IMG/VR virus record: IMGVR_UViG_3300049489_000842
Span: 1-64,000 of that record
Strand: one strand, 5' to 3'
From: a virus
DNA: 64,000 nt
Program-made: the position numbers and the translations under genes
Notes under the pieces: model-generated
Told to the model about the DNA's origin: nothing
The model's database searches: none
Seen by the model: the letters and a program-made list of their open reading frames with translations, nothing else
In this document: positions 1-55,271 of the stretch, in pieces
Numbering within the stretch: position 1 is the first letter of the stretch
Layout of the letters: every line of letters begins with the position of its first letter

Positions 1-3000
1 TGTCTGTCGACGCATCGGTTGTAATAGTGATATTTGTACCTGCCACCAATGTTAGTGTATCAGTAGCAGAATCCGCCACCACGTTTGACTGGCCCGACAC
101 TGCTATCGTCGAGAATGTACTTTGATCACCGGTATTAGTTCCTGATAGATTTGATGCCGATATTGCTCCGGTAAATGTCGCTCCATCAAGTTTTGCTAAT
201 TGAACCCACGATCCCCAAACACCGCTTGACATATAACGGATATAAAATCTGTTATTAACAATCTCGTGGTACATCTGGCTTTTAGCGTTTGATGTCCATT
301 GATGGTGATATAGTGTACTTCCGTTAACAGTAGCACCGACAGGGTAATTCGTTGCACCGGCAGATACTTTGTAAATACCTGATACTGTTATCGCATCTAA
401 ATCAGTAGTAATAGTAATTACAGTTATTATCGGTGTCCATTCTGACCAAGTACTTGTTGTTTTATGCCTTATCCAAAGTCGGTTATTCACAATTTCGTGA
501 TACATTTGACTTGCAGCCGTTGAATCCCAATTATTGTGATAAAGTGTACTACCATTCAATGAAGCTGTAACAGGGTAATTAGTTGCACCTGCCCCAATTC
601 TATATACACCGGTTATAGTAATGGTATTTACATCACCAATATATAACCCTTGCGCATACTTATCATAGTCGTGCGTATGTGATGTTATTGCTCCTGTTAA
701 TTTTGCTTCAATAGTAGCTTTTGTTTCATCACCGGTATTTGTACCAGATACTGCATCTAATGCTGTTCTATTTGAATGAGTTATCGCAGTCTTCTCTGCA
801 TCAGTCACATAACGTTTATTCGTACTATCAGCAATATCAGCTGTTGTAGCATCTGCGCCGGCAGTAACTAAACCTTTTGCATCATATGTGATTTTGGTTT
901 TGGTTGCTCCAGTTATCGCGACATTTGCAGCAACAAAATCTAAAGGATCTGTATATGTAGGTGCTCCTGCAGCATCAAAAGATGCTAATCTGATAGAAGC
1001 CTGATTACTTGTATGGTTTGCAGTTATCCATTCTCTATTACTTAACAAGGCATGATCGGATGCTCCACCAGTTGCAAGAATTGCTCCAGATGAGGTGGAT
1101 ACTCTTACATCTATAAATGTAGTGTTTACTAGTTTAAATTTAGCTGTAGTGAATGCACCGGTTGTATTATAATGAAAAGTGAGTCTGTAAAATGGAACTA
1201 CTTCTTGTAGTTCTAGTTTATTAAGCCCAACCAGGTTATTAAATTGAAATGGTGCTTCTCCTAATGCTGTTGTCAATGTACTATTGCTACTTTGACCCTG
1301 CCCTAATATCGCAATAACCGGCTCCGACGTGAAATTAGTGGCTAATAAGTACATTGGGAAATACCTATTGGCGGTCATATTTGTAAATCCACCAGCTGTT
1401 GTGTTATTAAACTGACATACAGCCGCTGCAATAGTAGATGGGGTTATAGCAGCTCCTCCAGATACGCCAAGGAAGTCTGTTGTAGTAAGTCTTCTCCATA
1501 TGTAATTTCCACCTGCCGCCGAACTGATGTAATATATAGGAATCCTCCCTCCTACAACTATTGCATCACCTATTGTAGCACCTGTTACTGATGTTATAGT
1601 AAATGTAGTACCAGTACCTCCAGTAACAACCGTTGCATATCCTCGTAATGTTTGAGTATTACCGTTCATTACTGTAATTGATTGACCAGTAATTAATGTA
1701 CGTGATGACGGAAATACTATTGTTGTGGCATTGGTTCCGACTGCTGCGAGATTTGTAAAACCTAAGAATTGATAAACAAATTTATCCCAATCTGTATCTG
1801 GAGTGGCTGTAGTTGATGTAATAGATAAATCTGAATGAGCTATACCGTTTTTAATATCCTCATCAAAAAAGTAACCACCACTAACTTGTAGTATTGCCCT
1901 GGCTGGTGAGTTGTCTGTATTAGAAGCTAATAAAGTAGAACTTATTCCATTATATGCACTAACTATAAATCCAGATTGATATACTGCACCTTGTGCATGG
2001 TTTCTAGCATGGTTGTAAATATCCCTACCGAATGTATGCTTTTCGTTTCCTACCCAAGCTACAGTGTTTCCTGTTGCTTCAAAATACATATTCCATAACA
2101 AAACATCCGGGTCATTTATTACCCATGGAGTTTTAGTTAAGGCCATTGCCGGGGCATTTTCATCTACCGTGGTTTGATTTATATAAAAGAAATATAAACC
2201 TTCACTAGCGGCTGCTGTCTGTGTGTATGCAGCGATATTAGCAGCTGTTACTATAAACTTTCTGTTGTTTATATAATAACTAAAAGATGTATAACCGCCT
2301 ACAAATTCTATGGATGCCGTAAGATTTCCTGTTGCGTAAGAAGTGGTTAATTTAAATTTCTTCTTTTCTTCAGATGGGATACCTGTACCCATTTTTGCAT
2401 CAAATGCCCTCTCGACATCAGACGATTCCAAATCGTTAGTGTACACACTATCGAATGAAACATCTGTATTTAATTTAGCATAGTTTGTAATATTTTCTGT
2501 AAAATCAAAAAACTTATTTGTATTGTTCCATACTGGAATTAATCCATCCGCATTTAGCGGTGTTCCATTAACATCACTTAAATCTTGTAATTTTGGTACT
2601 ATAGCAGATACAATATTTATCCTTCCATTTGTTCCATGTTTATACTCTACAATACCTACATTAATTATATAGTTAGGAACGGTTGGGAATACTTTTGTAA
2701 GTAATCCATCCAAGCCTACATATACCGGTTTCCCCTCATCGTACGCATTAGTATTTATATCACGAACTACACCCTGAATTGTGACATAACCAAAACCATT
2801 AATTGCTATATCTTGTGTTGCTAATCCGACATAAGCATATGCTGCTGGAGTAGTAATATCTACGGTTGTAAAAGCCGTAAATTGTCCTCCTACTGAATCT
2901 ATCGCTACTGGTTGTCCGTTTACTATTGGTTGGCCGGATGTATTCTTTCCGTATATATGCAGTTCCTGACCATTCTGTAATGTAACTCCATTCTTTAGTC

Positions 3001-4336
3001 TTGTTGAGTATGTAGAGTTTGCTTCATCCCAAAACATAGAACCGATTGGTTCTAAACCAGTTGGAGAGTATGAGTTGTTAAATGTTATGCCAGTGAATAT
3101 AGGAATTCCATTAATTACTGATTGTGGAGTAGTTTGATCAAGGTGTAATGATAGCGGATCTGTTTCAGTAATTGTTACCACTGTAGCATTATTGCCAGCA
3201 TTATCCGTGGCCGCAACAGCGGCTCCTACAAAGTTTAAATTTCCTCTTGCTGTTAGCGGTGTTCCTTCATTTTGTATAGTATGTCCTCCAGATAAAGGGT
3301 TTCCGTTTATAGTTATTGTATCTCCTACTATTTCTACTCCTGTATTTGATGTCTTTACATAATTAGAAGTACTGCCTTTAACTTTATAAAATACAGGATT
3401 GTATCCTGTAAAAGCTTTTATATCGAATCCTGATCCTACTACAGTACTGCTTATACTTCCTGCAGTCTGATTAGTGTAGTATAAATTTAAATCTTGTTTA
3501 GTGGCTGGAGATACAGTTCCAGTACCTCTATATATTACTATACTATATTTCTTCCCGGCCTCTAATACAAGAGGCGATGACAACACAGCATACTTTACTT
3601 CTGTATTAGCAGTTCCTATAATACCAGTCTGTCTAAAGTAAGGAGTGTTTAATAAAGGAGTATTTAAAGCGCCTAAAATTTCCCCATCAGTAAATTCTCT
3701 ATCAAAGACATCAATAACTATATCACTTACATTATTTAATGCAGAAGCTCTAAAATAAATACCTATAGAATCGATAATAGAATACTGATTATTTAAAAAA
3801 GTAGCTGAATGATAGGTTTTGGTTCCTGAAACTGTTTGTGGAGGCAGTGTATCTGGTATATCAGATAAAGTCTCTATTTTGTAATCCGTATTTTGTATAT
3901 GTAACTCAGAAAGATCCGGCTTATTCAGTATTTCAGCCCATCCTGTTACAGCATTCCAATCTGATTTTACATTTTGTAAAACTGCTAATGATGTAAATGT
4001 TGTATCTCCTAAAACATCAAAAGTTGCAACAGATTCTGGATATCCTACATGTTTAGATTGTATCCAACTTAAATTTGATAATAGGGCATGGTCTGATACT
4101 CCATCACTCCCAACTTCTTTCCAATTCAAATTATTTAGTAAACCAGAATCATAAGATTGGTAATTCAGATAATACTTTTTCATCTCGGATACAACAGATA
4201 CCTCCATCATAGGGTATCTCTCCACTAACGGAATAACATTCCTTTCTGCTATATCTAATGCTAAGATTTTAGCATCTACAGGTCTTTGAGAAGACAGATG
4301 AAAATTAGACGATAACCTTATATCTCCGATAGGCAT
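1..4336 (-). CDS. Large tail fibre/receptor-binding protein, >1440 aa, 3'-truncated by window edge (not in the ORF track)
   Basis: ATG at 4336 (MPIGDIRLSSNFHLSSQRPVDAK...). The frame reads open to position 2 (...GTNITITTDASTD). T/G/N-rich fibre composition, GTNTGD repeats, an HTH(D) metal-type motif and two tandem knob-like domains near the window edge. Confidence 0.85.
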   Translation of the reverse strand, partial: MPIGDIRLSSNFHLSSQRPVDAKILALDIAERNVIPLVERYPMMEVSVVSEMKKYYLNYQSYDSGLLNNLNWKEVGSDGVSDHALLSNLSWIQSKHVGYPESVATFDVLGDTTFTSLAVLQNVKSDWNAVTGWAEILNKPDLSELHIQNTDYKIETLSDIPDTLPPQTVSGTKTYHSATFLNNQYSIIDSIGIYFRASALNNVSDIVIDVFDREFTDGEILGALNTPLLNTPYFRQTGIIGTANTEVKYAVLSSPLVLEAGKKYSIVIYRGTGTVSPATKQDLNLYYTNQTAGSISSTVVGSGFDIKAFTGYNPVFYKVKGSTSNYVKTSNTGVEIVGDTITINGNPLSGGHTIQNEGTPLTARGNLNFVGAAVAATDNAGNNATVVTITETDPLSLHLDQTTPQSVINGIPIFTGITFNNSYSPTGLEPIGSMFWDEANSTYSTRLKNGVTLQNGQELHIYGKNTSGQPIVNGQPVAIDSVGGQFTAFTTVDITTPAAYAYVGLATQDIAINGFGYVTIQGVVRDINTNAYDEGKPVYVGLDGLLTKVFPTVPNYIINVGIVEYKHGTNGRINIVSAIVPKLQDLSDVNGTPLNADGLIPVWNNTNKFFDFTENITNYAKLNTDVSFDSVYTNDLESSDVERAFDAKMGTGIPSEEKKKFKLTTSYATGNLTASIEFVGGYTSFSYYINNRKFIVTAANIAAYTQTAAASEGLYFFYINQTTVDENAPAMALTKTPWVINDPDVLLWNMYFEATGNTVAWVGNEKHTFGRDIYNHARNHAQGAVYQSGFIVSAYNGISSTLLASNTDNSPARAILQVSGGYFFDEDIKNGIAHSDLSITSTTATPDTDWDKFVYQFLGFTNLAAVGTNATTIVFPSSRTLITGQSITVMNGNTQTLRGYATVVTGGTGTTFTITSVTGATIGDAIVVGGRIPIYYISSAAGGNYIWRRLTTTDFLGVSGGAAITPSTIAAAVCQFNNTTAGGFTNMTANRYFPMYLLATNFTSEPVIAILGQGQSSNSTLTTALGEAPFQFNNLVGLNKLELQEVVPFYRLTFHYNTTGAFTTAKFKLVNTTFIDVRVSTSSGAILATGGASDHALLSNREWITANHTSNQASIRLASFDAAGAPTYTDPLDFVAANVAITGATKTKITYDAKGLVTAGADATTADIADSTNKRYVTDAEKTAITHSNRTALDAVSGTNTGDETKATIEAKLTGAITSHTHDYDKYAQGLYIGDVNTITITGVYRIGAGATNYPVTASLNGSTLYHNNWDSTAASQMYHEIVNNRLWIRHKTTSTWSEWTPIITVITITTDLDAITVSGIYKVSAGATNYPVGATVNGSTLYHHQWTSNAKSQMYHEIVNNRFYIRYMSSGVWGSWVQLAKLDGATFTGAISASNLSGTNTGDQSTFSTIAVSGQSNVVADSATDTLTLVAGTNITITTDASTD
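199..652 (-). repeat. Tandem duplicated ~75-aa knob-like (pyocin-knob type) domain in the fibre
   Basis: ITGVYRIGAGATNYPV..NGSTLYHNNW...SQMYHEIVNNRLWIR...WSEW versus VSGIYKVSAGATNYPV..NGSTLYHHQW...SQMYHEIVNNRFYIR...WGSW. Nucleotide similarity is visible (ttattaacaatctcgtggtacat vs ttattcacaatttcgtgatacat). Confidence 0.85.
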
Positions 4337-4339
4337 ATC

Positions 4340-4930
4340 TTAATGTTTAAAAGTATTGTTAAAGTTTACTTGAGTTGTAATATGCTGGAATTCGTACACA
4401 AGATAACTAATAGGCACTCCATCTATATCTAAGTTCTCTAATCTGTATGCCCAACCGTTTATTGTCTCAAATCCATTAATATCGAGTATTTTAGATAACA
4501 ACCCATAACTAGCAGGGTATGCTATATAGTACACTTCCATATCCAATGTATAATTATACGTTTTATCGCCTCTGGCTGACATATCCTCAGAAAGAGCTTG
4601 TATCTGTACAGGAGTTAAGCCTGGATCTCCGGAACCATAATAGTATGGGTATGTAACAGGAGGAGGAGGAGTGTTTGGAATTTTATACAAAGCTGTAACA
4701 CCACTCTTTCTTGCCATCTCCACTGCTCGCATATAAATCTCTCTTTTTGTGTTATTACCTAGATAGTCTACTTTAAGTAGAGATAAAAGTAAATCCATGT
4801 AAAGACCGAATCTAAAATCCTGCTTTCCGTAGATATCTAGATTTTTACTTTGCTTTTTAGTAAGGACATCTGTTATGTCGTATTCTTTCGACAGAACATA
4901 GTCTATGTTGAATTCCAGTAAATTACTCAT
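4340..4930 (-). CDS. Virion structural protein (tail/fibre-associated)
   Basis: 196-aa ORF in the tail operon. A Pro linker is followed by a YYYGS...YYIAYPASYG beta domain of the type seen in phage structural proteins. Confidence 0.55.
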   Translation of the reverse strand: MSNLLEFNIDYVLSKEYDITDVLTKKQSKNLDIYGKQDFRFGLYMDLLLSLLKVDYLGNNTKREIYMRAVEMARKSGVTALYKIPNTPPPPVTYPYYYGSGDPGLTPVQIQALSEDMSARGDKTYNYTLDMEVYYIAYPASYGLLSKILDINGFETINGWAYRLENLDIDGVPISYLVYEFQHITTQVNFNNTFKH

Positions 4931-4940
4931 AGTAACTTAT

Positions 4941-5624
4941 TTAAGGTAAAAATACATTTGTTATATCATTATTGTAATTACAGTAAGCTTCGGTGGTTAA
5001 TCCCGACCATGTAGTTCCATTTGTTACATTTGGGATAGGTGTTCCATCTCTTAATTTTGTACATGCCCAGTTACCAGCAAGCCAAACCTGTGTACCTATT
5101 TTTACAGTTCTATATATATTTCCATCTATGTCTTCGAGAAATCCAGGATCGGTTGAATCGTCTTTTATTAATCGTATATTGTCTCCAAACTTTTTATTGT
5201 TACCATTAATATAATAATTATCATCCCCAGGTAAAAGCATTATTTCATATCCAGACGTAGTAGGAGATGGAAATTGTGTTGCTGTCCAAAATTTAGCATA
5301 GACTAGCATATTTCTAAATACACCATCTGAAGCATTTCTATCTCCATCAGCTCTTGCTGAAAACCCACTAGTGTTATCAGCAATATTAGGATCATTCCAA
5401 TACGTTAATCCTGCTTCTTTTAATTTACCACCTGAAACACTATTTCCTCCTAATTCAGTACTTAATGCATTAAACTCAGTATTACTAGGTACATGCCATC
5501 CAGCAGGTGCAAATAAAGGGTTACTTGCTGCATACCAATTATATAACCTTCCGTACTTTATATTCGAAACTACAGGTGTAGGAGGTGAACCTCCTAACTG
5601 ATTTTGACCAAAAAACATTCCCAT
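4941..5624 (-). CDS. FISUMP (Fibrobacter succinogenes major paralogous) domain protein, circularly permuted
   Basis: KYGRLYNWYAA, PAGWHVPS, GGKLKE, SGFSA, FWTAT, IRLIKD, and then the normally N-terminal DIDGNIYRTVKIGTQVWLA...DGTPIPNVT...W...AYCNYNND. Confidence 0.85.
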   Translation of the reverse strand: MGMFFGQNQLGGSPPTPVVSNIKYGRLYNWYAASNPLFAPAGWHVPSNTEFNALSTELGGNSVSGGKLKEAGLTYWNDPNIADNTSGFSARADGDRNASDGVFRNMLVYAKFWTATQFPSPTTSGYEIMLLPGDDNYYINGNNKKFGDNIRLIKDDSTDPGFLEDIDGNIYRTVKIGTQVWLAGNWACTKLRDGTPIPNVTNGTTWSGLTTEAYCNYNNDITNVFLP

Positions 5625-21240: not shown

Positions 21241-21507
21241 CTAATTATAGTAAGTTACCTTTAACCCAAACCATAGAAACATCAATTGTTTGTGTCTCAA
21301 GGTAAGATATACACTCAATCCTCCATCAGGATTTATCTGCCTATTCCTGACTGCCCAATAAGTACTATAATAAAACCCAAACAATTTAAAAATAAAAGGT
21401 AAAAACAAATGCCTTATATCAGATGGACTTCTATGGTAGAAAAACCCATTTGTATATTCGAAGATTTTTACCTTCTTAAACCTATCCTCAAACTCTTGTG
21501 ATACCAT
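21241..21507 (-). CDS. Hypothetical protein, first gene of the minus-strand operon
   Basis: 88-aa ORF abutting the RepL-like gene, downstream of a -7 motif. Confidence 0.55.
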   Translation of the reverse strand: MVSQEFEDRFKKVKIFEYTNGFFYHRSPSDIRHLFLPFIFKLFGFYYSTYWAVRNRQINPDGGLSVYLTLRHKQLMFLWFGLKVTYYN

Positions 21508-21585
21508 ATCTTCAGTTATTATTATTAGTAACGTAATACATCTAAATTTCTAACGTGGTCATACGCCTCCGTTATGTTTTCTGTA

Positions 21586-21593
21586 CAAATATA
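21586..21593 (-). promoter_or_regulatory. Bacteroidota-type -7 element TATATTTG heading the late operon
   Basis: Plus strand caaatata; lies just upstream of the first minus-strand ORF. Confidence 0.6.
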
Positions 21594-21600
21594 CGAAAAG

Positions 21601-21820
21601 TTATTCTAATAGAGTAATTCGACCCTCATTTTATTCTCCCAGAATAACAAAAAATGTATGAGGTGTGTATGGGTTTTATTCTCCCAGAATAACTTTTCCT
21701 TTCCTTAAAATAAAAAGATGGAGTTCCATACGTGTTAACCGAGTATGGGTTTTTAAGAGTTATTCTCCCAGAGTACCTGAGTTATTCTGGTAGAGTACTT
21801 GAGTTATTCTCCCAGACACA
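21601..21820. repeat. Six palindromic sites TTATTCT-N3-AGA(A/G)TA; candidate iterons/operators
   Basis: Copies start at 21601, 21631, 21676, 21760, 21782 and 21804. The last three have exact 22-bp spacing; the last copy has a degenerate right arm. Confidence 0.85.
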
Positions 21821-22248
21821 TAACGGCCATTTCAAACCCAGTCGTATCAAGGGAAACACATATCTTATCTTTAATAAGGAGATTTTTTCTTTCTTTTTCC
21901 GGGGGAGGAAAGGTAGGGAGAGAGAGGTAGGGTAGGTAGGTAAGATACTACTCCCCCACCACATATTTTTTATGGCCCAGTCCTTTCACATAGAAAGGCA
22001 TAGGGGTACTTACTTACATCCCCCCCCCTAAACCAGTTGTGTATTAGAGTTCCATTTCTATCCCGAAGGGGGCACCCCTTCGGGTACTCGACATCTGGGT
22101 ATCCCCCGGCATTGAACCTCGTGGTTCCTATTGCTGTTTGGGTATGCTTCAAATGTTACGAAGAGACAACTTCGTTCCCACCTTGAGGAGAACCAAATTC
22201 GCGAAACCCGAAAAGCGTAAGAGTAGGGACATCAAATACAGAGATACT

Positions 22249-22734
22249 ATGGAAAATACTTCTAAATCCATGACGCTTCAAGTTCGTTCAATTGGTTACA
22301 GTGCTAAACGTAATCGTATAGTTTTCAATTTCTCTAACCCTGAAACAGCTGGTTTAGCACATGGCGTGCCAGCAGAATGGTTCGGTAAGAAACTTGCCAA
22401 CTTCGGAATGTTTGACATTACCGCTGCGCATTTAGAGTTGTTAGTGGAATTGAACGGTGTAACCGCGCATTGTAATGGTGTATCTATCATACCAGCAGGT
22501 TCGATGCTGGAAGGTAGGGACGAACCTACAAAGCAGGACAATCTGGACGTGGTTGACTTTGACTTCCAAGTCAAAGTGTTACCAAAGCTTCAGATTAAAA
22601 AGGAACTTACTCCGGAAGTGCTTAAAGGAATGCCTGTACTGTTTAAATCTTCTGTAACCGAAGCCGAAAAGGCTGAGGTTGCTAAACCAACAGTTGCAAC
22701 TATTGCAGCAGGAATATCTGAAGACGAGGAGTAA
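22249..22734 (+). CDS. First plus-strand (early) gene; beta-rich with acidic tail (possible ssDNA-binding protein)
   Basis: Likely start MENTSK at 22249, ends ISEDEE, followed by a strong hairpin. Confidence 0.6.
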   Translation: MENTSKSMTLQVRSIGYSAKRNRIVFNFSNPETAGLAHGVPAEWFGKKLANFGMFDITAAHLELLVELNGVTAHCNGVSIIPAGSMLEGRDEPTKQDNLDVVDFDFQVKVLPKLQIKKELTPEVLKGMPVLFKSSVTEAEKAEVAKPTVATIAAGISEDEE

Positions 22735-22748
22735 TCCTCTCTTCAGGA

Positions 22749-22788
22749 CCCTTCGGGAGGCCTTGTGCCTTCCGAGGGGATTCCTTTT
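22749..22788 (+). terminator. GC-rich hairpin/terminator
   Basis: CCCTTCGGGAGGC-CTTGT-GCCTTCCGAGGGG followed by attcctttt. Confidence 0.65.
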
Positions 22789-22800
22789 CAAATGTATACC

Positions 22801-23470
22801 TTAGGGGGCTGGAAGTGAGTGATAGCAAGGGCTGTAGCCTTCGCTAACAATCAACTCACTTCTAGCTCCCTTAATCATAACATAGTCCTAACGAAGACTA
22901 AACTTACCTACTCTCTGGTTTACAGAGGGTTGAGGGAGTTATAGCATGACTCGTTAGGACTTTCCTCTCCTTATCCTACAGAGAGAAACACTTGCTTATA
23001 GCTTTAGGCGTAGATGCAAGGTGAGTAGCACATTGAGGCTACAGTAGGGTTATGTGGCTATTTATAGCTACATTGGCAATTGTCTAAAAGGGGGATTCTC
23101 CTTTTAGATAATATACCTTGATAGAAACAAGCAGTAAAAAGATAGTACATACTGCAGGTTACAGTTCCTTCGGGGATAGTCGGTGTTGTCCGATGAAAGG
23201 TGATAACACCTGTAGCTGCTTGTTTCTTTACTAATGCACCACAACTCACTTCCCAAGGGTGAGCAGTTGTAATACCTGAAAAGGTAACAATAAAAAGGAA
23301 AGTAGGAAAAGTATAAGGCAATACCATTACAAGAGTATGTAAGAACCTTGTTGAAGTATCTTTCTTATTACAACTGAGTGCAGAGGGGTATAGAAAGCAG
23401 AGCACTCCTCGCTATAACGAGGTCGTACAGCCAGGTTTCAGTCTGGCCGGGGAGTGTTGCTTTCTTTTTT
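22801..23470 (+). ncRNA. Large structured non-coding RNA region (~670 nt), unassigned
   Basis: At least ten consecutive stems whose imperfect pairs are G-U on the plus strand. No credible ORF. Ends in a long stem plus U-tract. Confidence 0.6.
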
Positions 23471-23496
23471 AAATTGTAAACTCTTAAAAACACTAT

Positions 23497-23697
23497 ATGC
23501 GTAAAAGGATTAAGAACAATGTGAAGGCTCAGTTAGTGGCCTCTACTGTAGTTGGAAAGGAATATTACCTTTCCAAACTAAGAAATTTCAAGGAAGCTAT
23601 ACTTCCTGAGAAAACACGTGCCCATAAATTGGGCATGAATATATCTGGGTTAAAAAACTACGACGAGAGTCGTAGTGTAGGCCCAGGTACATTATGA
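23497..23697 (+). CDS. Small basic hypothetical protein
   Basis: 66 aa with an A-rich leader (aaactcttaaaaacactat). Confidence 0.55.
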   Translation: MRKRIKNNVKAQLVASTVVGKEYYLSKLRNFKEAILPEKTRAHKLGMNISGLKNYDESRSVGPGTL

Positions 23698-23832
23698 TTT
23701 AGAGTTTCCAAACCAGAGATAGTATCAAAGGGGAGGAAACTTATTACTTGCAGGTTTAACCTGTATGGCCACAGAGAACTCGAAAGGGTTGGTGCGAACA
23801 CTGATGCTTATGCATTAAGAAGAAACTCTAAA
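23698..23832 (+). ncRNA. Structured RNA element closed by an 11-bp stem
   Basis: TTTAGAGTTTC...GAAACTCTAAA encloses TGCAGG-TTTAA-CCTGTA and AACTC-GAAA-GGGTT hairpins. Confidence 0.5.
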
Positions 23833-23841
23833 AATATAAAA

Positions 23842-23967
23842 ATGAAAAAAGCAGTAAAACAAGAAGAAGCTGGTGCTTTGGCACTTGCAATGTTTTTAAT
23901 AACATCGTTTGTGACGGTGTTATTAATAATGGCTTTCACATTTGGGAGTAATCCCATAGGTGTTTAG
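23842..23967 (+). CDS. 41-aa single-TM peptide (below the ORF-track cutoff)
   Basis: MKKAVKQEEAGALALAMFLITSFVTVLLIMAFTFGSNPIGV* with an A-rich leader. Confidence 0.6.
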   Translation: MKKAVKQEEAGALALAMFLITSFVTVLLIMAFTFGSNPIGV

Positions 23968-24100
23968 ACTGATAAAACCAACAACCTGAAGCCGAATGGG
24001 GATAAGGGTGGTTGGTTAAGATAAAAACCGGATGCTAGTTATAACTGGACTTTTAGTAGAGTTTTTGTTATTGCCAACAGAGTTTTACCGGTTCTCAATT

Positions 24101-24136
24101 GAGGGGAGTCTACTTAGGTAGGCTCCTCTCTTTTTT
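24101..24136 (+). terminator. Intrinsic terminator
   Basis: GAGGGGAGTCTAC-TTAG-GTAGGCTCCTCTC-TTTTTT. Confidence 0.85.
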
Positions 24137-24258
24137 CTATTTTAATTTAAACAAATCCCCCTTAATCCTTACCAACGATTTTTGGTAGTGACATAAATGT
24201 CGTGACCAAATGTGAGGATAAGGGGGGAAATTACTAACAGCTAAAACAATAATAAAAG

Positions 24259-24672
24259 ATGAAAAACAGAAAAACGCTAGTGTTTATAGCTATTGTAGTA
24301 AGCTTAATCTGCTTGCTAATAGCTATTGAGTTTAAGGGGAGCTCACAAGAAAAACAAAAACCTTTAGAGGCTACACATTTGGTGTACAGCCTTAGAGCAC
24401 AAGAGGGACACATATACCAGTTTAAGAAAGACAATGACTTCAACTATTACATGGATGAAGGAGATGTCTATATGTATGGTTTATCTCATATCGACTCATT
24501 AGAGGAGGTAAGAGATTATGCTAATTACTACCACCTAACTTTTAAAGTAGAGGGTGTAGGCACTCTTGAAGACTGTAAAGCTATTGCAGGAGGTCTTTAT
24601 ATGGAGTATTATACTAGCGAGTACAAAGATAAGTACTCATGGCCAGTTCCACCCGGTAACTCTTTAAACTAA
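24259..24672 (+). CDS. Membrane-anchored URI/GIY-YIG-like protein, degenerate paralogue
   Basis: Basic N-terminus plus TM helix; YSLRA, GDVYMYG, VGTLEDC and PPGN align with the next ORF. Confidence 0.6.
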   Translation: MKNRKTLVFIAIVVSLICLLIAIEFKGSSQEKQKPLEATHLVYSLRAQEGHIYQFKKDNDFNYYMDEGDVYMYGLSHIDSLEEVRDYANYYHLTFKVEGVGTLEDCKAIAGGLYMEYYTSEYKDKYSWPVPPGNSLN

Positions 24673-24679
24673 ACATTTT

Positions 24680-25135
24680 ATGGCACAGAGACTAAGCAAC
24701 TCAGCAATAGCTACCTTATTAGTGGCTATAACAATGTTGTTATTTGCTATAACAACACTGCACTCTACAAGAGTGGCTGAAAAAGAGAGAGCAATAGGAA
24801 GGATATTAGAGGGGGAGGATGATCTAACCCCAGCAGTACAGTACTCCCTTAAGGCACTAACCTCAGGCATGTACCCTTGCTATGCAAAGGGTGGGCCATC
24901 AGAAGTGTACCTTGAAAGGGGAGATGTCTGGAAGTATGGCCAGACATGCAATCCAACTACCAGATATTCTGGTAGGTATCTTATAGAGAATCGTCTGTAT
25001 ATGGTGACAGAGTTTGTTGGAACCAAAACAGAATGTCTAATTATGGAAAAGGAGAAAATATTCTCCTATCCTATGCTGCCGGAAGGATTAAGGACTCATC
25101 TTACCAGGCCTCCTGGTAATAAAATAGATAACTGA
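24680..25135 (+). CDS. Membrane-anchored URI/GIY-YIG-like nuclease-fold protein
   Basis: N-terminal TM helix; YSLKA...GDVWKYGQT...RYS...MEKEKI..Y...RPPGNKI resembles URI-type polymorphic toxin tips. Confidence 0.6.
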   Translation: MAQRLSNSAIATLLVAITMLLFAITTLHSTRVAEKERAIGRILEGEDDLTPAVQYSLKALTSGMYPCYAKGGPSEVYLERGDVWKYGQTCNPTTRYSGRYLIENRLYMVTEFVGTKTECLIMEKEKIFSYPMLPEGLRTHLTRPPGNKIDN

Positions 25136-25422
25136 TGGTGATAGTTAATCCGGAACAAGAACATAGAATTATAGATTCTGATGTTCTTAAAGCAGTAATG
25201 AGTATAATAGCCAAGAAAAACATTATAATCATTACAGATTTCACAACAAATTCTAAGGGATTCCTTAAGAATTGTGAGACTGGAGAAATTAACCTGTTTG
25301 TCCCTAAAAATAACCAGGGACAATTGCTCTCAAATTGGGTAGAATTACTCAATATTATATCTTATGAGCTATCTTTGGGATTTAAACTAAACAAAAGTGG
25401 ACATATAGAATGGTTGACATGA
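25135..25422 (+). CDS. Hypothetical protein
   Basis: 95 aa, start overlaps the upstream stop. Confidence 0.55.
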   Translation: MVIVNPEQEHRIIDSDVLKAVMSIIAKKNIIIITDFTTNSKGFLKNCETGEINLFVPKNNQGQLLSNWVELLNIISYELSLGFKLNKSGHIEWLT

Positions 25423-25610
25423 GTTCAAACACAGAAAATATAGGGGAATATGAGGTTCTGAAATCCCAAGTCGGAATGAACGTTGGGATGTACTATGTTG
25501 GAAGGATGTACTTTCATGAAGGAGTATATCTACCTTACTCGGTGGATTCAGCATTCTTCATTACTAGGAATGCTGCTGAGGATTACTTTAATACTCATTT
25601 TAAGAAATAA
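25410..25610 (+). CDS. Small hypothetical protein
   Basis: 66 aa with a YYVGR...PYS.DS.FF.TR..AE motif, a recurring small phage protein type. Confidence 0.6.
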   Translation: MVDMSSNTENIGEYEVLKSQVGMNVGMYYVGRMYFHEGVYLPYSVDSAFFITRNAAEDYFNTHFKK

Positions 25611-25620
25611 CACTTAACTA

Positions 25621-26080
25621 TATAGACCGTGCAAGTGAAAAGGTTACTGGACGAATGCCCAGTGTTAGTTGAGTTTATAATAAAACTCTAGCTAAGAGTA
25701 TAACAAAGCCGCGAGGTAACTAAAGGATAAAAAGAATTAAATGCGTCGTGGCAGTGTGGCTCTGCCCTTTAGAAGTTTACCAAGCTGTAGGTGAGATTCC
25801 TACAGCTATTTTAACGGCGCAAAGCACGTAGTGTAGTCTGGAAACTGATCAACCAGAAAGGTACTATTCGATTAGTATTGCGCCTCTATAAAGTCTCTCT
25901 GCTTAGGAAACAAGCATACATACCAGCGTAAACCTGGTAGCAATATCAACTAATTATGTAGATTTGGCAAATCAGCTTGTGGAGTAGGTTATAATAATAA
26001 AGAATAACAAGAAAGTAACATAAGAAACATGACTTGCTTTAATGTTATAATACTTTGCCAGGTACAGAGAGATTTTATTT
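25621..26080 (+). ncRNA. Structured non-coding region (~460 nt) including a T-loop hairpin, a tRNA-like cloverleaf and a ~185-nt closed domain
   Basis: AGCTGTAGG-TGAGATT-CCTACAGCT; GGCGCA...TGCGCC cloverleaf; AAGTCTCTCTG(25891)...CAGAGAGATTT(26075). Confidence 0.55.
25816..25888 (+). ncRNA. Degenerate tRNA-like element (not a canonical tRNA)
   Basis: Acceptor-like GGCGCA/TGCGCC, short D-like arm, TCTGG-11nt-CCAGA arm, TACTA-TTCGAT-TAGTA T-like arm, 3' TCTA instead of NCCA. Confidence 0.45.
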
Positions 26081-26099
26081 TTAATTTAAACTTAAAAAG

Positions 26100-26378
26100 A
26101 TGGGAGTAAATCAATTAAAGAAGTATGTAATATTACACTTAACTGATAATGGGTGGAAAGTAGAGATGCCACACTATGATCGTGTATATGTAAAAGATGG
26201 AAAAACCATTATAGTAGAACATAATCATGTAAATTTTTACTTTAGAGGGTATTACTTCGGTAAGTGTGATCACACTAATTTATTAACAGATTGTCATGCA
26301 TTTATAAGATACTTTGTTGAGGGAGATAACATGGAACAGAAACCACAAGATCCTCTTAGTATCTTTGATTCATTATAA
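26100..26378 (+). CDS. Hypothetical protein
   Basis: 92 aa with an A-rich leader. Confidence 0.65.
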   Translation: MGVNQLKKYVILHLTDNGWKVEMPHYDRVYVKDGKTIIVEHNHVNFYFRGYYFGKCDHTNLLTDCHAFIRYFVEGDNMEQKPQDPLSIFDSL

Positions 26379-26640
26379 GGCTACGGCCTAGGCTAGAGAA
26401 AAGACAGCCTGCAGCACCTGAGAAGGACTGCGAAATATCGTCAGTAATGGCGGACATGTTATTGCCTTGAGAAAGCAAGCCGAAATAGGATTATATTGTA
26501 GTGAAAGACACTAGGGTATCCATAACATGAACTCGTTCTCGGCATAAAGAATTCCTCTCTTTAGTGTGAAGGATAACTTTAGAGATATGAACTGCTGGTA
26601 TACCAGAATCAGTCCTGTCTTTGACCCTGAGTAATCAGGG
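26378..26640 (+). ncRNA. Multi-domain structured RNA (~260 nt) rich in T-loop and GNRA motifs, unassigned
   Basis: UACG tetraloop hairpin; closing stem AAAGACAG(26400)/CTGTCTTT(26622); nested CATGTTAT/ATAACATG; two TGAGAA and two CGAAATA motifs; two GTAA-capped stems. Confidence 0.65.
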
Positions 26641-26663
26641 TGCTAAAACTAAAACTCTTAAAA

Positions 26664-26873
26664 ATGAAAGTAACAGTTAAACATTGTTTTACAGGAGAAT
26701 TTAACTCTTTAGAATTGGATATAACCCCAGAACAAGCAGAAAGAATCCTCAAAAATGAGGAAAAATTACAAGATATAGTTCCTCACTTATCTGCTGATGA
26801 AAGAGAATTTCTTATAACAGGAATGCTGCCTGGCGAGTTTGATGCTTTATTAGATTGTTCTGACGAATACTGA
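26664..26873 (+). CDS. Small conserved phage protein
   Basis: LQDIVPHLSADEREFLITG...EFD motif, widespread in phages; likely start 26664. Confidence 0.7.
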   Translation: MKVTVKHCFTGEFNSLELDITPEQAERILKNEEKLQDIVPHLSADEREFLITGMLPGEFDALLDCSDEY

Positions 26874-26875
26874 TT

Positions 26876-27040
26876 ATGTATAAAGTAATTGATGAAGGCG
26901 GAAACCTCTTCCTCGTCAAGTACGAGGAAAAAGAGGAAGATGGATTATGGGTTCCAGAGATTCTAGTAGAATCAAAATCCCAAGAGATAATAGCCGAAGA
27001 GTTAATGAGGCTTGAGTTGTTAGAAATAGAAAGTAATTGA
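26876..27040 (+). CDS. 54-aa highly acidic protein (below the ORF-track cutoff)
   Basis: MYKVIDEGGNLFLVKYEEKEEDGLWVPEILVESKSQEIIAEELMRLELLEIESN*; fills the gap between neighbouring ORFs. Confidence 0.6.
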   Translation: MYKVIDEGGNLFLVKYEEKEEDGLWVPEILVESKSQEIIAEELMRLELLEIESN

Positions 27041-27285
27041 TGCAGCTAGAAAAAGACAACAGTGTAGTGTTCCAAACAAATGAGGTCGAACAAACCTCTA
27101 AAGGGTACAAGCTTAACTCTGGAGGATTTATACCAAGAGAGGCTGTGCGCGTACAGATACTATCCAAGGAAAACTTCCCTGGAAAGAAATCTGTGGAGAA
27201 AATAATGCTGGTATTGAAGAGAACCAGTTTAAATAAATCTCTTTATACTCTATTACGTAGTAATAGAGAAGTCAGAAACCAATAA
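27037..27285 (+). CDS. Hypothetical protein
   Basis: 82-aa ORF coupled to the upstream stop. Confidence 0.55.
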   Translation: MMQLEKDNSVVFQTNEVEQTSKGYKLNSGGFIPREAVRVQILSKENFPGKKSVEKIMLVLKRTSLNKSLYTLLRSNREVRNQ

Positions 27286-27296
27286 ATTTTTTAAGA

Positions 27297-27905
27297 ATGA
27301 ATTTTGATTTTTTAAATGATTTGGGAGAGTCTTTACTTCCTGTTGAAACAAAAAAGAGAGTAGCAGCTTCTAAAGTTCCTGTAAATGGAATAATGAGGGT
27401 GACTAAAAAACAGATTGTATTTGGAGATGAGTTTCGTGCATCTGTGGGAACAAAGATGATTGACATGGTTTTCTCAACTGAGTGGAGTCAATATCCTACC
27501 GGAAAACCTAAAGTCCTGTTTTGTGTAGTGCTGCTTAACGAGGAAAAACCTCTTAAGGCTGACATTAAGAAAGAAGGACCAACACAGTATGCTGCAGAGC
27601 TTCTTGGTAAACTCATTAATTTCTTTGATCTACCCGAAGATACTAAATCTGTAGAGTTAGATTGGAGCCCAGAAAATGCTGTGTTTGTGAAAAAGGCACG
27701 CTTTTCTAAAATTGTACAGAGAGGAGAAGAGAAAGGGTTGCCTACTTATGTTACCAGGGACAATGCCCACATGAACCCGGTCTTTGTTGTAGCTAATGCT
27801 GAAGAGGTATTAGAAGATGATATTGAATTGGAAGATCTTAGAAACACACCTGAGGTTGATACAGACATTGTAGAAGAGGACGCTATACCACAGAAAAAGA
27901 AGTAA
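27297..27905 (+). CDS. Hypothetical protein with acidic C-terminus
   Basis: 202-aa ORF immediately upstream of polA. Confidence 0.7.
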   Translation: MNFDFLNDLGESLLPVETKKRVAASKVPVNGIMRVTKKQIVFGDEFRASVGTKMIDMVFSTEWSQYPTGKPKVLFCVVLLNEEKPLKADIKKEGPTQYAAELLGKLINFFDLPEDTKSVELDWSPENAVFVKKARFSKIVQRGEEKGLPTYVTRDNAHMNPVFVVANAEEVLEDDIELEDLRNTPEVDTDIVEEDAIPQKKK

Positions 27906-54238: not shown

Positions 54239-54399
54239 AAAAACTATGGATTAGCTTTGAAGAATGGAAATTTGAAAAAGAATGGTTGAAGGGTAGAGAA
54301 AAGTTATTCTTTAGGGCTAATCCTATTGCACACGAACTCCTTCATGAAACTATACGGAAAAACATTAAATGAACTAATGAAAGAAAGGGTAAAAACAAA

Positions 54400-55271
54400 A
54401 TGAATAAAGATAAAAATAATAAACTCCCCATACATCTGATTGGTATCAGTGGTCGTATGGGGAGTGGTTAAGTAAAGATACTGTTGGAAAAATTGTACAG
54501 TATTTATTTGCTAAAGAAGAATCTTCTATAATATATGTAAAGTCAAAGTTAGTAAAAGACATGAGTAATATTTTATTAGACTTTGAAGGATATATTAATG
54601 AAGGATATGATAAAAACAGTAACTGGCAAATAAAGAAGTTCGCTACCAAAGTTAAGGAGATATGCTCACTTCTCACTGGGATACCTGTGAAAGACTTTGA
54701 GAAAGAAGAAGTTAAAAGTAGTTATTTAGGAGAAGAGTGGGACTATATTAAGTTTGAAAGTTCCGGTAAAAAAGTAATGAATAGAAAAGAGTATTTGGAT
54801 TACATAGCAGGTACAACTTTTATGCATACTAAATTAGATTTTAACAGGATGACAGTAAGAGAACTACTTCAAAAAGTAGGTACAGATGCAATGAGAGATG
54901 TTATACATCCTGATGTTTGGGTTAATGCTTTGATGAAGGATTATAGAGATAAAGTAGACTTTGATAAATCTTTACCACCAAATAAAAACTGGTTAATTAC
55001 AGATGTACGCTTTCCTAATGAGGCTAAAGCTATTAAAGATAGAGGTGGGATTGTTGTTAGGGTTAATAGACCTTCTGTAAGAAAAGAGGAAGTCACAAAT
55101 GCTTTGACAGGAGAGAAAGATTACTTTCATGTCCATTATCCGAAGGACGAACATCCTTCTGAAACAGCTTTGGATGGCTATCAATTCGACTATATCATTG
55201 ACAATTCTGGTAGTATTGAGGATCTTATACGTAAGACAAAGGAGTTTTTAATCTCATTTAATCTTTTATAA
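54400..55271 (+). pseudogene. Deoxynucleoside monophosphate kinase interrupted in the P-loop (5-nt insert TAAGT at 54469-54473); pseudogene or recoded gene
   Basis: 54400 ATG...IGISGRMGSG-stop, then KDTVGKI in frame with ORF 54561, which has KKFA..VK, RELLQKVGTD, ITDVRFPNE and HPSET..D motifs. Confidence 0.8.

Follow-up and report, generated by a model that had tools for sequence, protein, structure and literature searches.

A predicted twister-type ribozyme variant within a modular, conserved leader region of a putative crAss-like phage

How much of a gene-dense phage genome can be given over to RNA, and what such RNA might do, is the question raised by positions 22140–26640 of the IMG/VR virus record IMGVR_UViG_3300049489_000842. 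The window analysed here is the first 64 kb of this 88,518-base record, which is estimated to be 88% complete and probably comes from a freshwater sediment metagenome. Within 22140–26640, 1,947 of the 4,501 bases lie outside any open reading frame (ORF), and of the seven gaps of at least 200 nucleotides (nt) in the genome that hold no ORF of 60 amino acids (aa) or more, five of the six genuine ones fall inside 21508–26639; the seventh, 1–4339, was discarded as an artefact of an ORF running off the contig. A first-pass annotation had remarked on this ORF-poor region, and on an A-rich leader and short ORF after each of its blocks, both of which are plainly visible in the sequence. It had also proposed a single undescribed system of phage non-coding RNAs. 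The finding is real but narrower than that: the region holds a ribozyme variant, in what appears to be a modular and conserved early leader, and for two of its six blocks a structure finds no support. Rather than a wholly new RNA, the only identifiable module (23223–23396) appears to be an uncatalogued variant of a known self-cleaving class, the twister ribozymes.

Leftward genes extend up to 21507, rightward genes run from ~22249, and the GC skew turns at ~22000; the rightward gene block thus begins within 22140–26640. The family-A DNA polymerase has distant relatives only (23–31% identity), Crassvirales phages among them. The reading preferred here, and regarded as reasonably probable when its two halves are taken jointly, is that this stretch forms the early transcription unit on the rightward side of a crAss-like phage from freshwater sediment, and that its long spacers act in cis, as modules for RNA processing and stability set along the early transcript.

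Judged from its sequence, the element at 23223–23396 is a twister by architecture (Table 1). It follows the order of twister type P1 (RF03160, clan CL00120), namely P1, the UAA at the cut, a four-pair P2, the T2 pseudoknot, the P4 loop, an optional P5, GAGGG, and P1 again, and all three stems of the class are present. Its UAA, UCCCAAG and GAGGG motifs match the RF03160 consensus line, which was obtained through a positive control on canonical phage twisters (32–70.5 bits), and the two positions that differ constitute a compensated T2 pair. It departs from twister-P1 in that the first T2 pair is flipped (CC/GG in place of the conserved GC/GC), P4 comprises five pairs, the P5 arm takes the place of the linker that follows P4, and Rfam does not detect it; by Rfam's curated threshold, a gathering score of 67.2 bits that the window copy does not reach, it stands outside RF03160. 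The description of the class in the available part of a review fits 23223–23396, and the same source gives P3 as missing in about 20% of twisters (PMC5408937). Natural twisters have been assayed, according to the part of PMC11662667 consulted.

Searching IMG/VR with the two motifs of the 5' core gave at least 120 stretches. Among the 124 instances listed, the gap between the motifs has a length of 9 or 10 in 117, and the 3' core, which had not been requested, lies within 400 nt in 114. The four possible T2 combinations behave very differently in this respect, with the 3' core accompanying CC/GG in 114/124 and GC/GC, the canonical twister form, in 43/95, as against 0/24 for GC/GG and 0/30 for CC/GC; across viral contigs only the compensated combinations carry the 3' core. 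When the window copy was aligned with 60 others, the shortest among 107 unique complete instances (61 sequences in all), 89.3% of cells were paired, compared with 79.3% in shuffles and at most 51% with the partners slid, and the covariation score was 0.315 versus 0.133, with 0 of 500 shuffles as high. Covariation is seen in P4, the base of P5 and the inner part of P1: P4 is 97.7% paired with double changes at all five pairs, the base of P5 is paired in 92.6% of cells with double changes at nine of ten pairs, and the three core-proximal P1 pairs form in 52, 48 and 40 of the 61 sequences. Within the family, P2 (four pairs), T1 and T2 show no variation. The T1 CCC and GGG are identical in 61/61 sequences and hence yield no covariation; CCC was fixed by the search pattern, GGG was not.

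A family covariance model, R1, built with the window copy in its seed, finds one copy in the whole genome (100.8 bits, E-value 1e-23), and matches one of five canonical-twister loci, weakly (24.9 bits, E 8e-4). Across 185,579 species genomes it confirms five of 14 pattern matches plus one weak one, mostly in metagenome bins of assorted phyla. An all-family Rfam scan of six family loci returned no ribozyme at E up to 1. As far as sequence comparison goes, the family is shown to be large, covarying, almost confined to phages and missed by Rfam. Its copies sit mainly between genes, with 97/107 outside ORFs of at least 50 aa, and an ORF starts no more than 150 nt downstream in 47/93, compared with 27% at random positions; in the window, 100 nt separate the ribozyme from the start of the 66-aa ORF. 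Directly upstream of family ribozymes, 47 nt fold at -8.5 kcal/mol, compared with -5.6 kcal/mol for random 47-mers. A full-text literature search found no paper describing twisters in crAss-like phages.

Several observations were made alongside the family search. The weak R1 match in the species genomes (L291 275–411, contig3 of Flavobacterium terrisoli strain PT-3; 25.6 bits, E 6e-4) would be the sole copy seen in a cultured organism. At locus L046, a GOLLD-like RNA (4367–4761; 100.8 bits, gathering score 150, E 2e-25) ends ~10 nt before a twister-variant copy that begins at 4771, and a second copy follows ~160 nt later. Locus L203, a single viral contig, holds at 2499–2874 and 5163–5234 two canonical type-P1 twisters (70.5 and 32.1 bits) together with a twister-sister ribozyme (39.2 bits, gathering score 34). 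A tight link of the family to transfer RNA (tRNA) or transfer-messenger RNA (tmRNA) was considered and set aside, such genes being present in 21 of the 60 loci scanned.

The ribozyme is embedded in RNA that is itself strongly folded. Block 1 (22735–23496) has a minimum free energy (MFE) of -283 kcal/mol (z -13.5) on the plus strand and -253.8 kcal/mol (z -9.45) on the minus strand, its modules being scored against 200 shuffles each. For the genome background, 1,179 windows of 150 nt were compared with 15 shuffles each, and are hence noisy, giving a mean z of -0.66 with a standard deviation of 1.47; six of the nine windows genome-wide with a plus-strand z of -5 or lower lie within 22651–24225. 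The strongest fold outside block 1, 23560–23700 (z -7.4), falls within the 66-aa ORF and had been counted as coding. The first-pass statement that nearly all of the non-coding sequence folds is accurate for 22735–23496, 23698–23841 (z -3.0) and 24150–24235 (z -5.4, plus strand), with 23968–24100 at z -2.0, and fails for the last two blocks once they are divided: 25611–26099 scores -3.8 whole and -1.3, -2.0 and -0.2 in three pieces, and 26379–26639 scores -2.0 whole and -1.85 and -1.9 in two. Against shuffled controls, therefore, blocks 1, 2 and 4 fold far beyond chance, and blocks 5 and 6 are unremarkable in pieces. GNRA and UNCG loops are present in the folds, and the G.U pairing on the plus strand noted earlier is supported, with 32/249 pairs in the block 1 MFE fold on that strand versus 17/245 on the other. 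Elsewhere in the genome, 54376–54525 also folds strongly (z -5.4 on the plus and -9.5 on the minus strand, 15 shuffles only) and coincides with 54239–54445, the sole other ORF-free gap of at least 200 nt.

Related strains were compared through contigs of at least 80% likeness from three DNA metagenome runs (X2, X3 and X4) and one metatranscriptome (X6), in which an uncovered part is no evidence of absence; contigs of these strains span most of the region. Word matching had indicated 19 further runs with small shares of the stretch, and the shares in X5 and X7–X20 carry no information on habitat. Blocks 1–4 are better conserved than the neighbouring genes, with identities of 96–98% and 88–94%, respectively. 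The counts behind these figures are 21 changes in 747 nt and 16 in 826 for the non-coding spacer upstream; 38 in 1,029 (X2), 16 in 420 (X3) and 5 in 209 (X4) for block 1; 4 plus 3 gaps in 308 (X2 record 5, 23946–24253) and 5 plus 3 gaps in 273 (X4 record 18, 23974–24246) for blocks 3–4; and 36 in 350, 70 in 808, 76 in 951 and 74 in 627 for coding stretches. Block 2 is identical over 23571–23829 in X3 record 10, and block 4 is ~97–98% conserved. Blocks 5 and 6 are poorly kept in the three DNA runs: X3 record 13 (26412–26810) has 30 changes and 27 gaps in 399 nt, and 25680–25913 has no covering DNA contig at 80% likeness in X2–X4.

Pair-preserving substitutions in these relatives are suggestive. 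Among the 40 of 391 differences displayed, on which the pair-change counts rest, five of the seven substitutions at paired sites keep the pair. At 22989/23016, X3 carries a double change from C-G to U-A, and X2 and X4 have only the C>T that gives the U.G intermediate; 22814 A>G and 22864 A>G in M1, and 23077 C>T in M4, keep their pairs as G.U or U.G on the plus strand only. For the covariation and conservation expected in relatives, blocks 1–4 give suggestive support, exceeding the genes in conservation and including one compensatory pair; blocks 5–6 do not. The idea of one undescribed RNA system has to be given up, as block 1 is a string of separable modules. A relative in X3 lacks 23125–23402, a deletion that starts exactly at the first base of M5, and two X2 contigs skip 23273–23367 and 23275–23365, in which the arm apex is replaced and the base of P5 retained.

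Further relatives are scarce. Comparison of 21400–27400 with GenBank phages by blastn gave no match; no relative was found in IMG/VR with the first gene, the polymerase, the 151-aa ORF or alignment A2 as query, nor any exact match to the 21-mer 23403–23423. When 21400–27000 was compared by blastn with 270 loci, the ribozyme matched, as did the 151-aa ORF in L002 and L003, and the other RNA modules are therefore without relatives among those phages.

Four metatranscriptome contigs are identical to the window, at 22112–22692, 23245–23454, 23598–23772 and 25913–26043; a second metatranscriptome, X10, also holds the strain. These contigs show neither ends, strand nor level, and the RNA library may contain DNA. 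The contig at 23245–23454 is the deepest of the four (97), at ~4x the depth of the first gene's contig, and the next one downstream has a depth of 2.8; that at 25913–26043 carries letters foreign to the genome at either end. Such loose letters, found at 23245, 25913 and 26043, presumably represent sequencing-adapter ends, which would imply short inserts. Conservation above that of the flanking genes, substitutions that keep pairs and identical RNA contigs all agree with the earlier proposal that the spacers function as plus-strand RNA.

In the mechanism proposed here, the ribozyme would cut the transcript between U23232 and A23233, leaving the mRNA of the first gene with a structured 3' tail (M1–M5) that ends in a 2',3'-cyclic phosphate. 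The 3' end of this upstream product would be formed by M5, which has a closing helix that shares three bases with P1. The downstream product would begin with a 5'-OH and either end at 23395–23470, as a stable RNA of ~240 nt for which M7 and its U-tract are a candidate 3' end, or read on into the 66-aa ORF; the high-depth RNA contig 23245–23454 fits the former option, weakly. The other long hairpins, and the hairpin that precedes the 137-aa ORF, may act as nuclease barriers, terminators or processing sites, and blocks 25611–26099 and 26379–26639 may be plain untranslated spacers or fast-evolving elements.

A number of observations weigh against this interpretation. Self-cleavage itself is a prediction, and the Rfam twister models, at E up to 10, match neither the genome, nor 23190–23430 in an all-family scan, nor five family records. 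P2, T1 and the 5' core never vary in the family and were partly fixed by the search pattern. The X3 relative is without the whole ribozyme module (23125–23402), which is therefore dispensable. The RNA contig begins at 23245, 12 nt past the predicted cut, and not at 23233. Terminator-like sites follow 8/102 family copies, compared with 10% of random positions; this lack of enrichment led to the rejection of a general 'twister plus terminator' unit, and the case for a discrete 240-nt product is accordingly particular to this locus. Three parts of block 1 (22884–22961, 23125–23225 and 23395–23470) score slightly lower z on the minus strand, and two of the seven displayed sites, 22815 and 22821 (both G>A), break pairs unless compensated among the differences outside those displayed. 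Nor does this reading account for blocks 5 and 6, which show no notable folding in pieces.

The strongest competing explanation, which is nonetheless considered rather unlikely, holds that the spacers are stable, trans-acting phage RNAs, comprising the array of hairpins together with a piece of ~240 nt (23233 to ~23470), that serve in host take-over, as anti-defence decoys or as scaffolds, with the ribozyme merely releasing them. A precedent exists in the Cellulophaga crAss-like phage phi14:2, in which two long early intergenic regions, at the g004–g005 and g005–g006 junctions, are more highly transcribed than most genes and stay present throughout infection, their function being unknown, as reported in the available part of bioRxiv 10.1101/2020.03.07.982082. 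There, as here, a first early gene is followed by more than 1.5 kb without accepted genes, the ORF calls in the 1.7 kb after g004 (NC_021806 2905–4601) having been withdrawn, and the region is transcribed in the gene direction, according to the same partial source. The ~4x depth of contig 23245–23454 and the conservation of blocks 1–4 above the surrounding genes also agree with trans-acting RNAs. Contig depth is, however, a poor measure of level, and the phi14:2 region has no sequence or model similarity to that described here, with no R1 match in the first 9 kb of the phi14:2 genome. Moreover, the modules vary between close relatives, which suits accessory elements acting in cis more than a single dedicated RNA machine, and neither a target nor a partner is known. 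The more specific proposal that the hairpin array and the ~240-nt piece are abundant, stable, trans-acting counterparts of the phi14:2 RNAs, made at the start of infection by a dedicated twister clade, is likewise entertained only as a tentative possibility; if true, crAss-like phages would use such a clade to make RNAs that serve to take over the host or to counter its defences.

Part of the phi14:2 stretch, unlike the window, is a tmRNA gene. Located between g004 and g006 (NC_021806 4031–4502), it scores 46.0 bits with Rfam (gathering score 47; E 3.6e-16), is predicted by ARAGORN at 4031–4500 with an 11-residue tag, and overlaps the region of abundant early RNAs whose function was called unknown.

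Searches for known structured RNAs bear on the same question. As anticipated, no Rfam family is found at gathering thresholds across the window. GOLLD, ROOL and other large phage RNAs are comparable in being several hundred nt of ORF-free, highly folded sequence; these and other large Rfam RNAs have no match in the window at those thresholds, nor at E up to 5 in 22735–24260 and 25600–26650, and block 1 differs from GOLLD and ROOL in its modular make-up, close strains having lost or exchanged parts of it. Relaxed Rfam matches on small pieces, to microRNA, small nucleolar RNA and long non-coding RNA families (E 0.1–5), were rejected as chance-level. The earlier suggestion of tRNA mimics found no support: ARAGORN detects neither tRNA nor tmRNA genes in the window, no tRNA-clan Rfam model matches at E up to 5, 25816–25885 forms no cloverleaf by ARAGORN or the Rfam tRNA model, and 25611–26099 as a whole has neither an Rfam nor a tRNA match. 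No observation speaks for decoys or antitoxins either.

RNase III processes the early mRNA of phage T7, and its sites are long hairpins with a helix of roughly 20 pairs. By analogy, the hairpins in the present region might be substrates of, or barriers to, host RNases, with the twister-like module an inactive relic. The long hairpins M1, M2 and block 4, with 25–30 pairs that are nearly perfect apart from bulges, have this shape and resemble the T7 sites in lying between early-operon genes, and one relative does without the ribozyme. The region differs from T7 in having several consecutive hairpins without intervening genes, plus a ribozyme, and the catalytic and tertiary features of the latter that its sequence can show are intact: the A after the cut, the G after P2, and the potential pairs of T1 (3/3) and T2 (2/2). 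The same features are kept in at least 114 family copies, which argues for selection on activity; RNase substrates or barriers together with a relic are considered improbable. The first-pass annotation had named RNase III-type stems as its mundane alternative, and in so far as processing sites in an early transcript were envisaged it came close to the present finding, with the difference that the cutter that can be named is the RNA itself.

It is highly improbable that the inverted repeats act as DNA, in the form of a replication origin, or packaging or recombination sites, by the strand switch. The region adjoins that switch, the skew turn at ~22000 and 16-nt repeats at 21628–21816, and its minus strand folds well too (z -9.45). 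Three of the five pair-keeping substitutions are nevertheless G.U on the plus strand only, and A.C on the other, in line with the excess of plus-strand G.U pairs in the MFE fold; in addition, the ribozyme family is oriented with genes, upstream of ORFs, and parts of the region are present in an RNA library. Finally, crAss-like phages are known to recode stops, and a 115-aa ORF lies on the minus strand at 23058–23405, yet that the blocks hide small proteins or recoded-stop frames is scarcely credible, as the long phage genes are open in the standard code, no block becomes entirely open when TGA, TAG or TAA is taken as sense (in block 1, at most 154 of 254 codons run on without a stop), and the 115-aa ORF overlaps a ribozyme whose RNA fold is conserved in phages unrelated to one another.

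According to the part of PMC6765202 available, phage genes often have self-cleaving ribozymes nearby; such bacterial ribozymes may be of importance to phages, and their jobs are largely unknown. The preferred reading, of cis-acting modules that include a self-cleaving one, adds to this a ribozyme clade undetected by the standard catalogue with at least 114 copies in viral contigs. At this locus, a clear place in the early transcript, with a structured 3' tail on one side and the next gene on the other, is combined with natural deletion variants and same-strain metatranscriptome contigs, and the effect of a phage twister on its transcript is therefore directly testable. The locus also provides a concrete way to read some of the abundant early non-coding RNA of a cultured crAss-like phage. 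For annotation, the lesson is that Rfam-negative does not mean ribozyme-free in these phages.

Table 1. Positions in the window of the spacers, RNA modules and short genes of the ORF-poor region
Feature	Position	Strand	Description and basis
ORF-free spacer	22735–23496		762 nt
ORF-free spacer	23698–23841		144 nt
ORF-free spacer	23968–24258		291 nt
ORF-free spacer	25611–26099		489 nt
ORF-free spacer	26379–26639		261 nt
Twister-type ribozyme variant, type P1, without P3	23223–23396	+	Sequence anatomy and family model
P1	23223–23231/23388–23396	+	9 pairs, one U.U
Predicted cut	U23232 / A23233, then A	+	UAA adjoining P1
P2	23235–23238/23379–23382	+	4 pairs
T2 pseudoknot	CC 23239–23240 with GG 23257–23258	+
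P4	23245–23249/23259–23263	+	Five pairs, loop holding UCCCAAG
Putative T1 pseudoknot	CCC 23252–23254 with GGG 23385–23387	+
P5 arm	23264–23376	+	113 nt; 10-pair base 23264–23273/23367–23376, 93-nt apex
GAGGG after P2 3' strand	23383–23387	+	Candidate general-base G 23383
DUF805b-like hairpin and purine-rich motif	22198–22229	+	5' leader, 20 nt upstream of ATG 22249; Rfam RF02914
First rightward gene	22249–22734	+	161 aa, acidic C-terminal tail, variable among relatives
Terminator-like hairpin	22749–22779	+	13 pairs, U-rich tail, after first gene; pattern scan and fold
M1, long irregular hairpin	22803–22871	+	MFE -43.3, z -8.7 (+); -35.1, z -7.0 (-)
M2, long irregular hairpin	22884–22961	+	MFE -33.6, z -5.2 (+); z -5.8 (-)
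M3, small hairpin	22989–23016	+	Compensatory change at closing pair; MFE partners
M4, four-way junction	23017–23120	+	Three hairpins within 7-pair closing helix; -41.8, z -6.1 (+); -27.5, z -4.9 (-)
M5, junction domain	23125–23225	+	11-pair closing helix; z -3.2
M7, branched hairpin then U-tract	23395–23470	+	MFE -28.1, z -2.8
66-aa ORF packed with perfect hairpins	23497–23697	+	z -4.5 and -7.4
Block 2, multi-branch fold	23698–23832	+	11-pair closing helix; z -3.0 (+), -1.6 (-)
41-aa hydrophobic ORF	23842–23967	+	Lysine-rich start, single hydrophobic helix
Block 3, two hairpin domains	23968–24138	+	Then terminator-like hairpin 24101–24130 and T-run; z -2.0 for 23968–24100, terminator scan
Block 4, long bulged hairpin	24156–24228	+	30 nt before 137-aa ORF; MFE -33.9, z -5.4 (+); z -3.2 (-)
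Block 5, ORF-free	25611–26099	+	Structure unsupported, partly transcribed; z in pieces, RNA contig
Block 6, ORF-free	26379–26639	+	Structure unsupported by energy; z values

Among the parts outside the ribozyme, the leader of the first gene holds the closest approach to a catalogued family. The RF02914 match there scores 35.1 bits (E 3.3e-7), 0.5 bit under the gathering score of 35.6, and is single-copy in the 88.5-kb genome, where the next best scores 12.7 bits. Like the DUF805b RNA motif, which is typed Cis-reg, it covers the whole 35-position model and is located in a 5' leader; it differs in having three standard stem pairs and in a downstream gene that belongs to no Pfam family, DUF805 included, the expectation of a DUF805 gene downstream being drawn from the name of the family. 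In full text, that name turned up in one methods paper. M7 is not called by simple terminator scans, and in X3 the U-tract after it lacks 9 nt.

In the 66-aa ORF, coding and structure probably coincide. At the X3 contig end before 23653, the ORF is 3 nt shorter, in frame, and a double change is read as keeping a hairpin at ~23619–23635. Word-indexed protein searches returned window proteins only and no homologue of it, and a single-sequence model has a mean predicted local distance difference test score (pLDDT) of 68.7, with mostly one long helix. The 41-aa ORF sits between two structured blocks, ahead of a terminator-like hairpin, and has the size and shape of a small membrane peptide; of its two X2 variants, at 23879 and 23886, one is read as missense and one as synonymous.

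The first rightward gene probably starts at ATG 22249 rather than TTG 22138, because its sole relative aligns from there and the RNA contig begins at 22112; this adds a 109-nt leader. That relative (P0003, 54% identical) was the only one in two large protein libraries and the single match of an exhaustive HMMER search, one among 1.8 billion representatives, and the 161-aa product has no Pfam or PHROG family. In a related-strain contig (X2 record 3) the gene is swapped, 22215–22704 being replaced by 467 unlike letters. A model of the gene together with its one relative was unusable (pLDDT 34.7). Weak look-alikes in the Atlas are oligonucleotide/oligosaccharide-binding (OB) folds (RecJ OB, ExoVII OB and DUF669; template-modelling score at most 0.5, model pLDDT 0.47), and a single-strand-binding protein is a guess only.

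Further downstream, the 137-aa (24259–24672) and 151-aa (24680–25135) ORFs look paralogous, with an N-terminal hydrophobic stretch. Relatives of the 151-aa ORF, 43% identical, occur on two bacterial-looking metagenome contigs (L002 134–595, and L003), each followed by a small ORF, and a toxin-immunity-like layout is possible. At the strand switch, the 16-nt repeat occurs five times in 21628–21816, with three copies 22 nt apart and some palindromic, in a 740-nt ORF-free spacer that is 97–98% conserved in relatives; these repeats may be iterons or operators.

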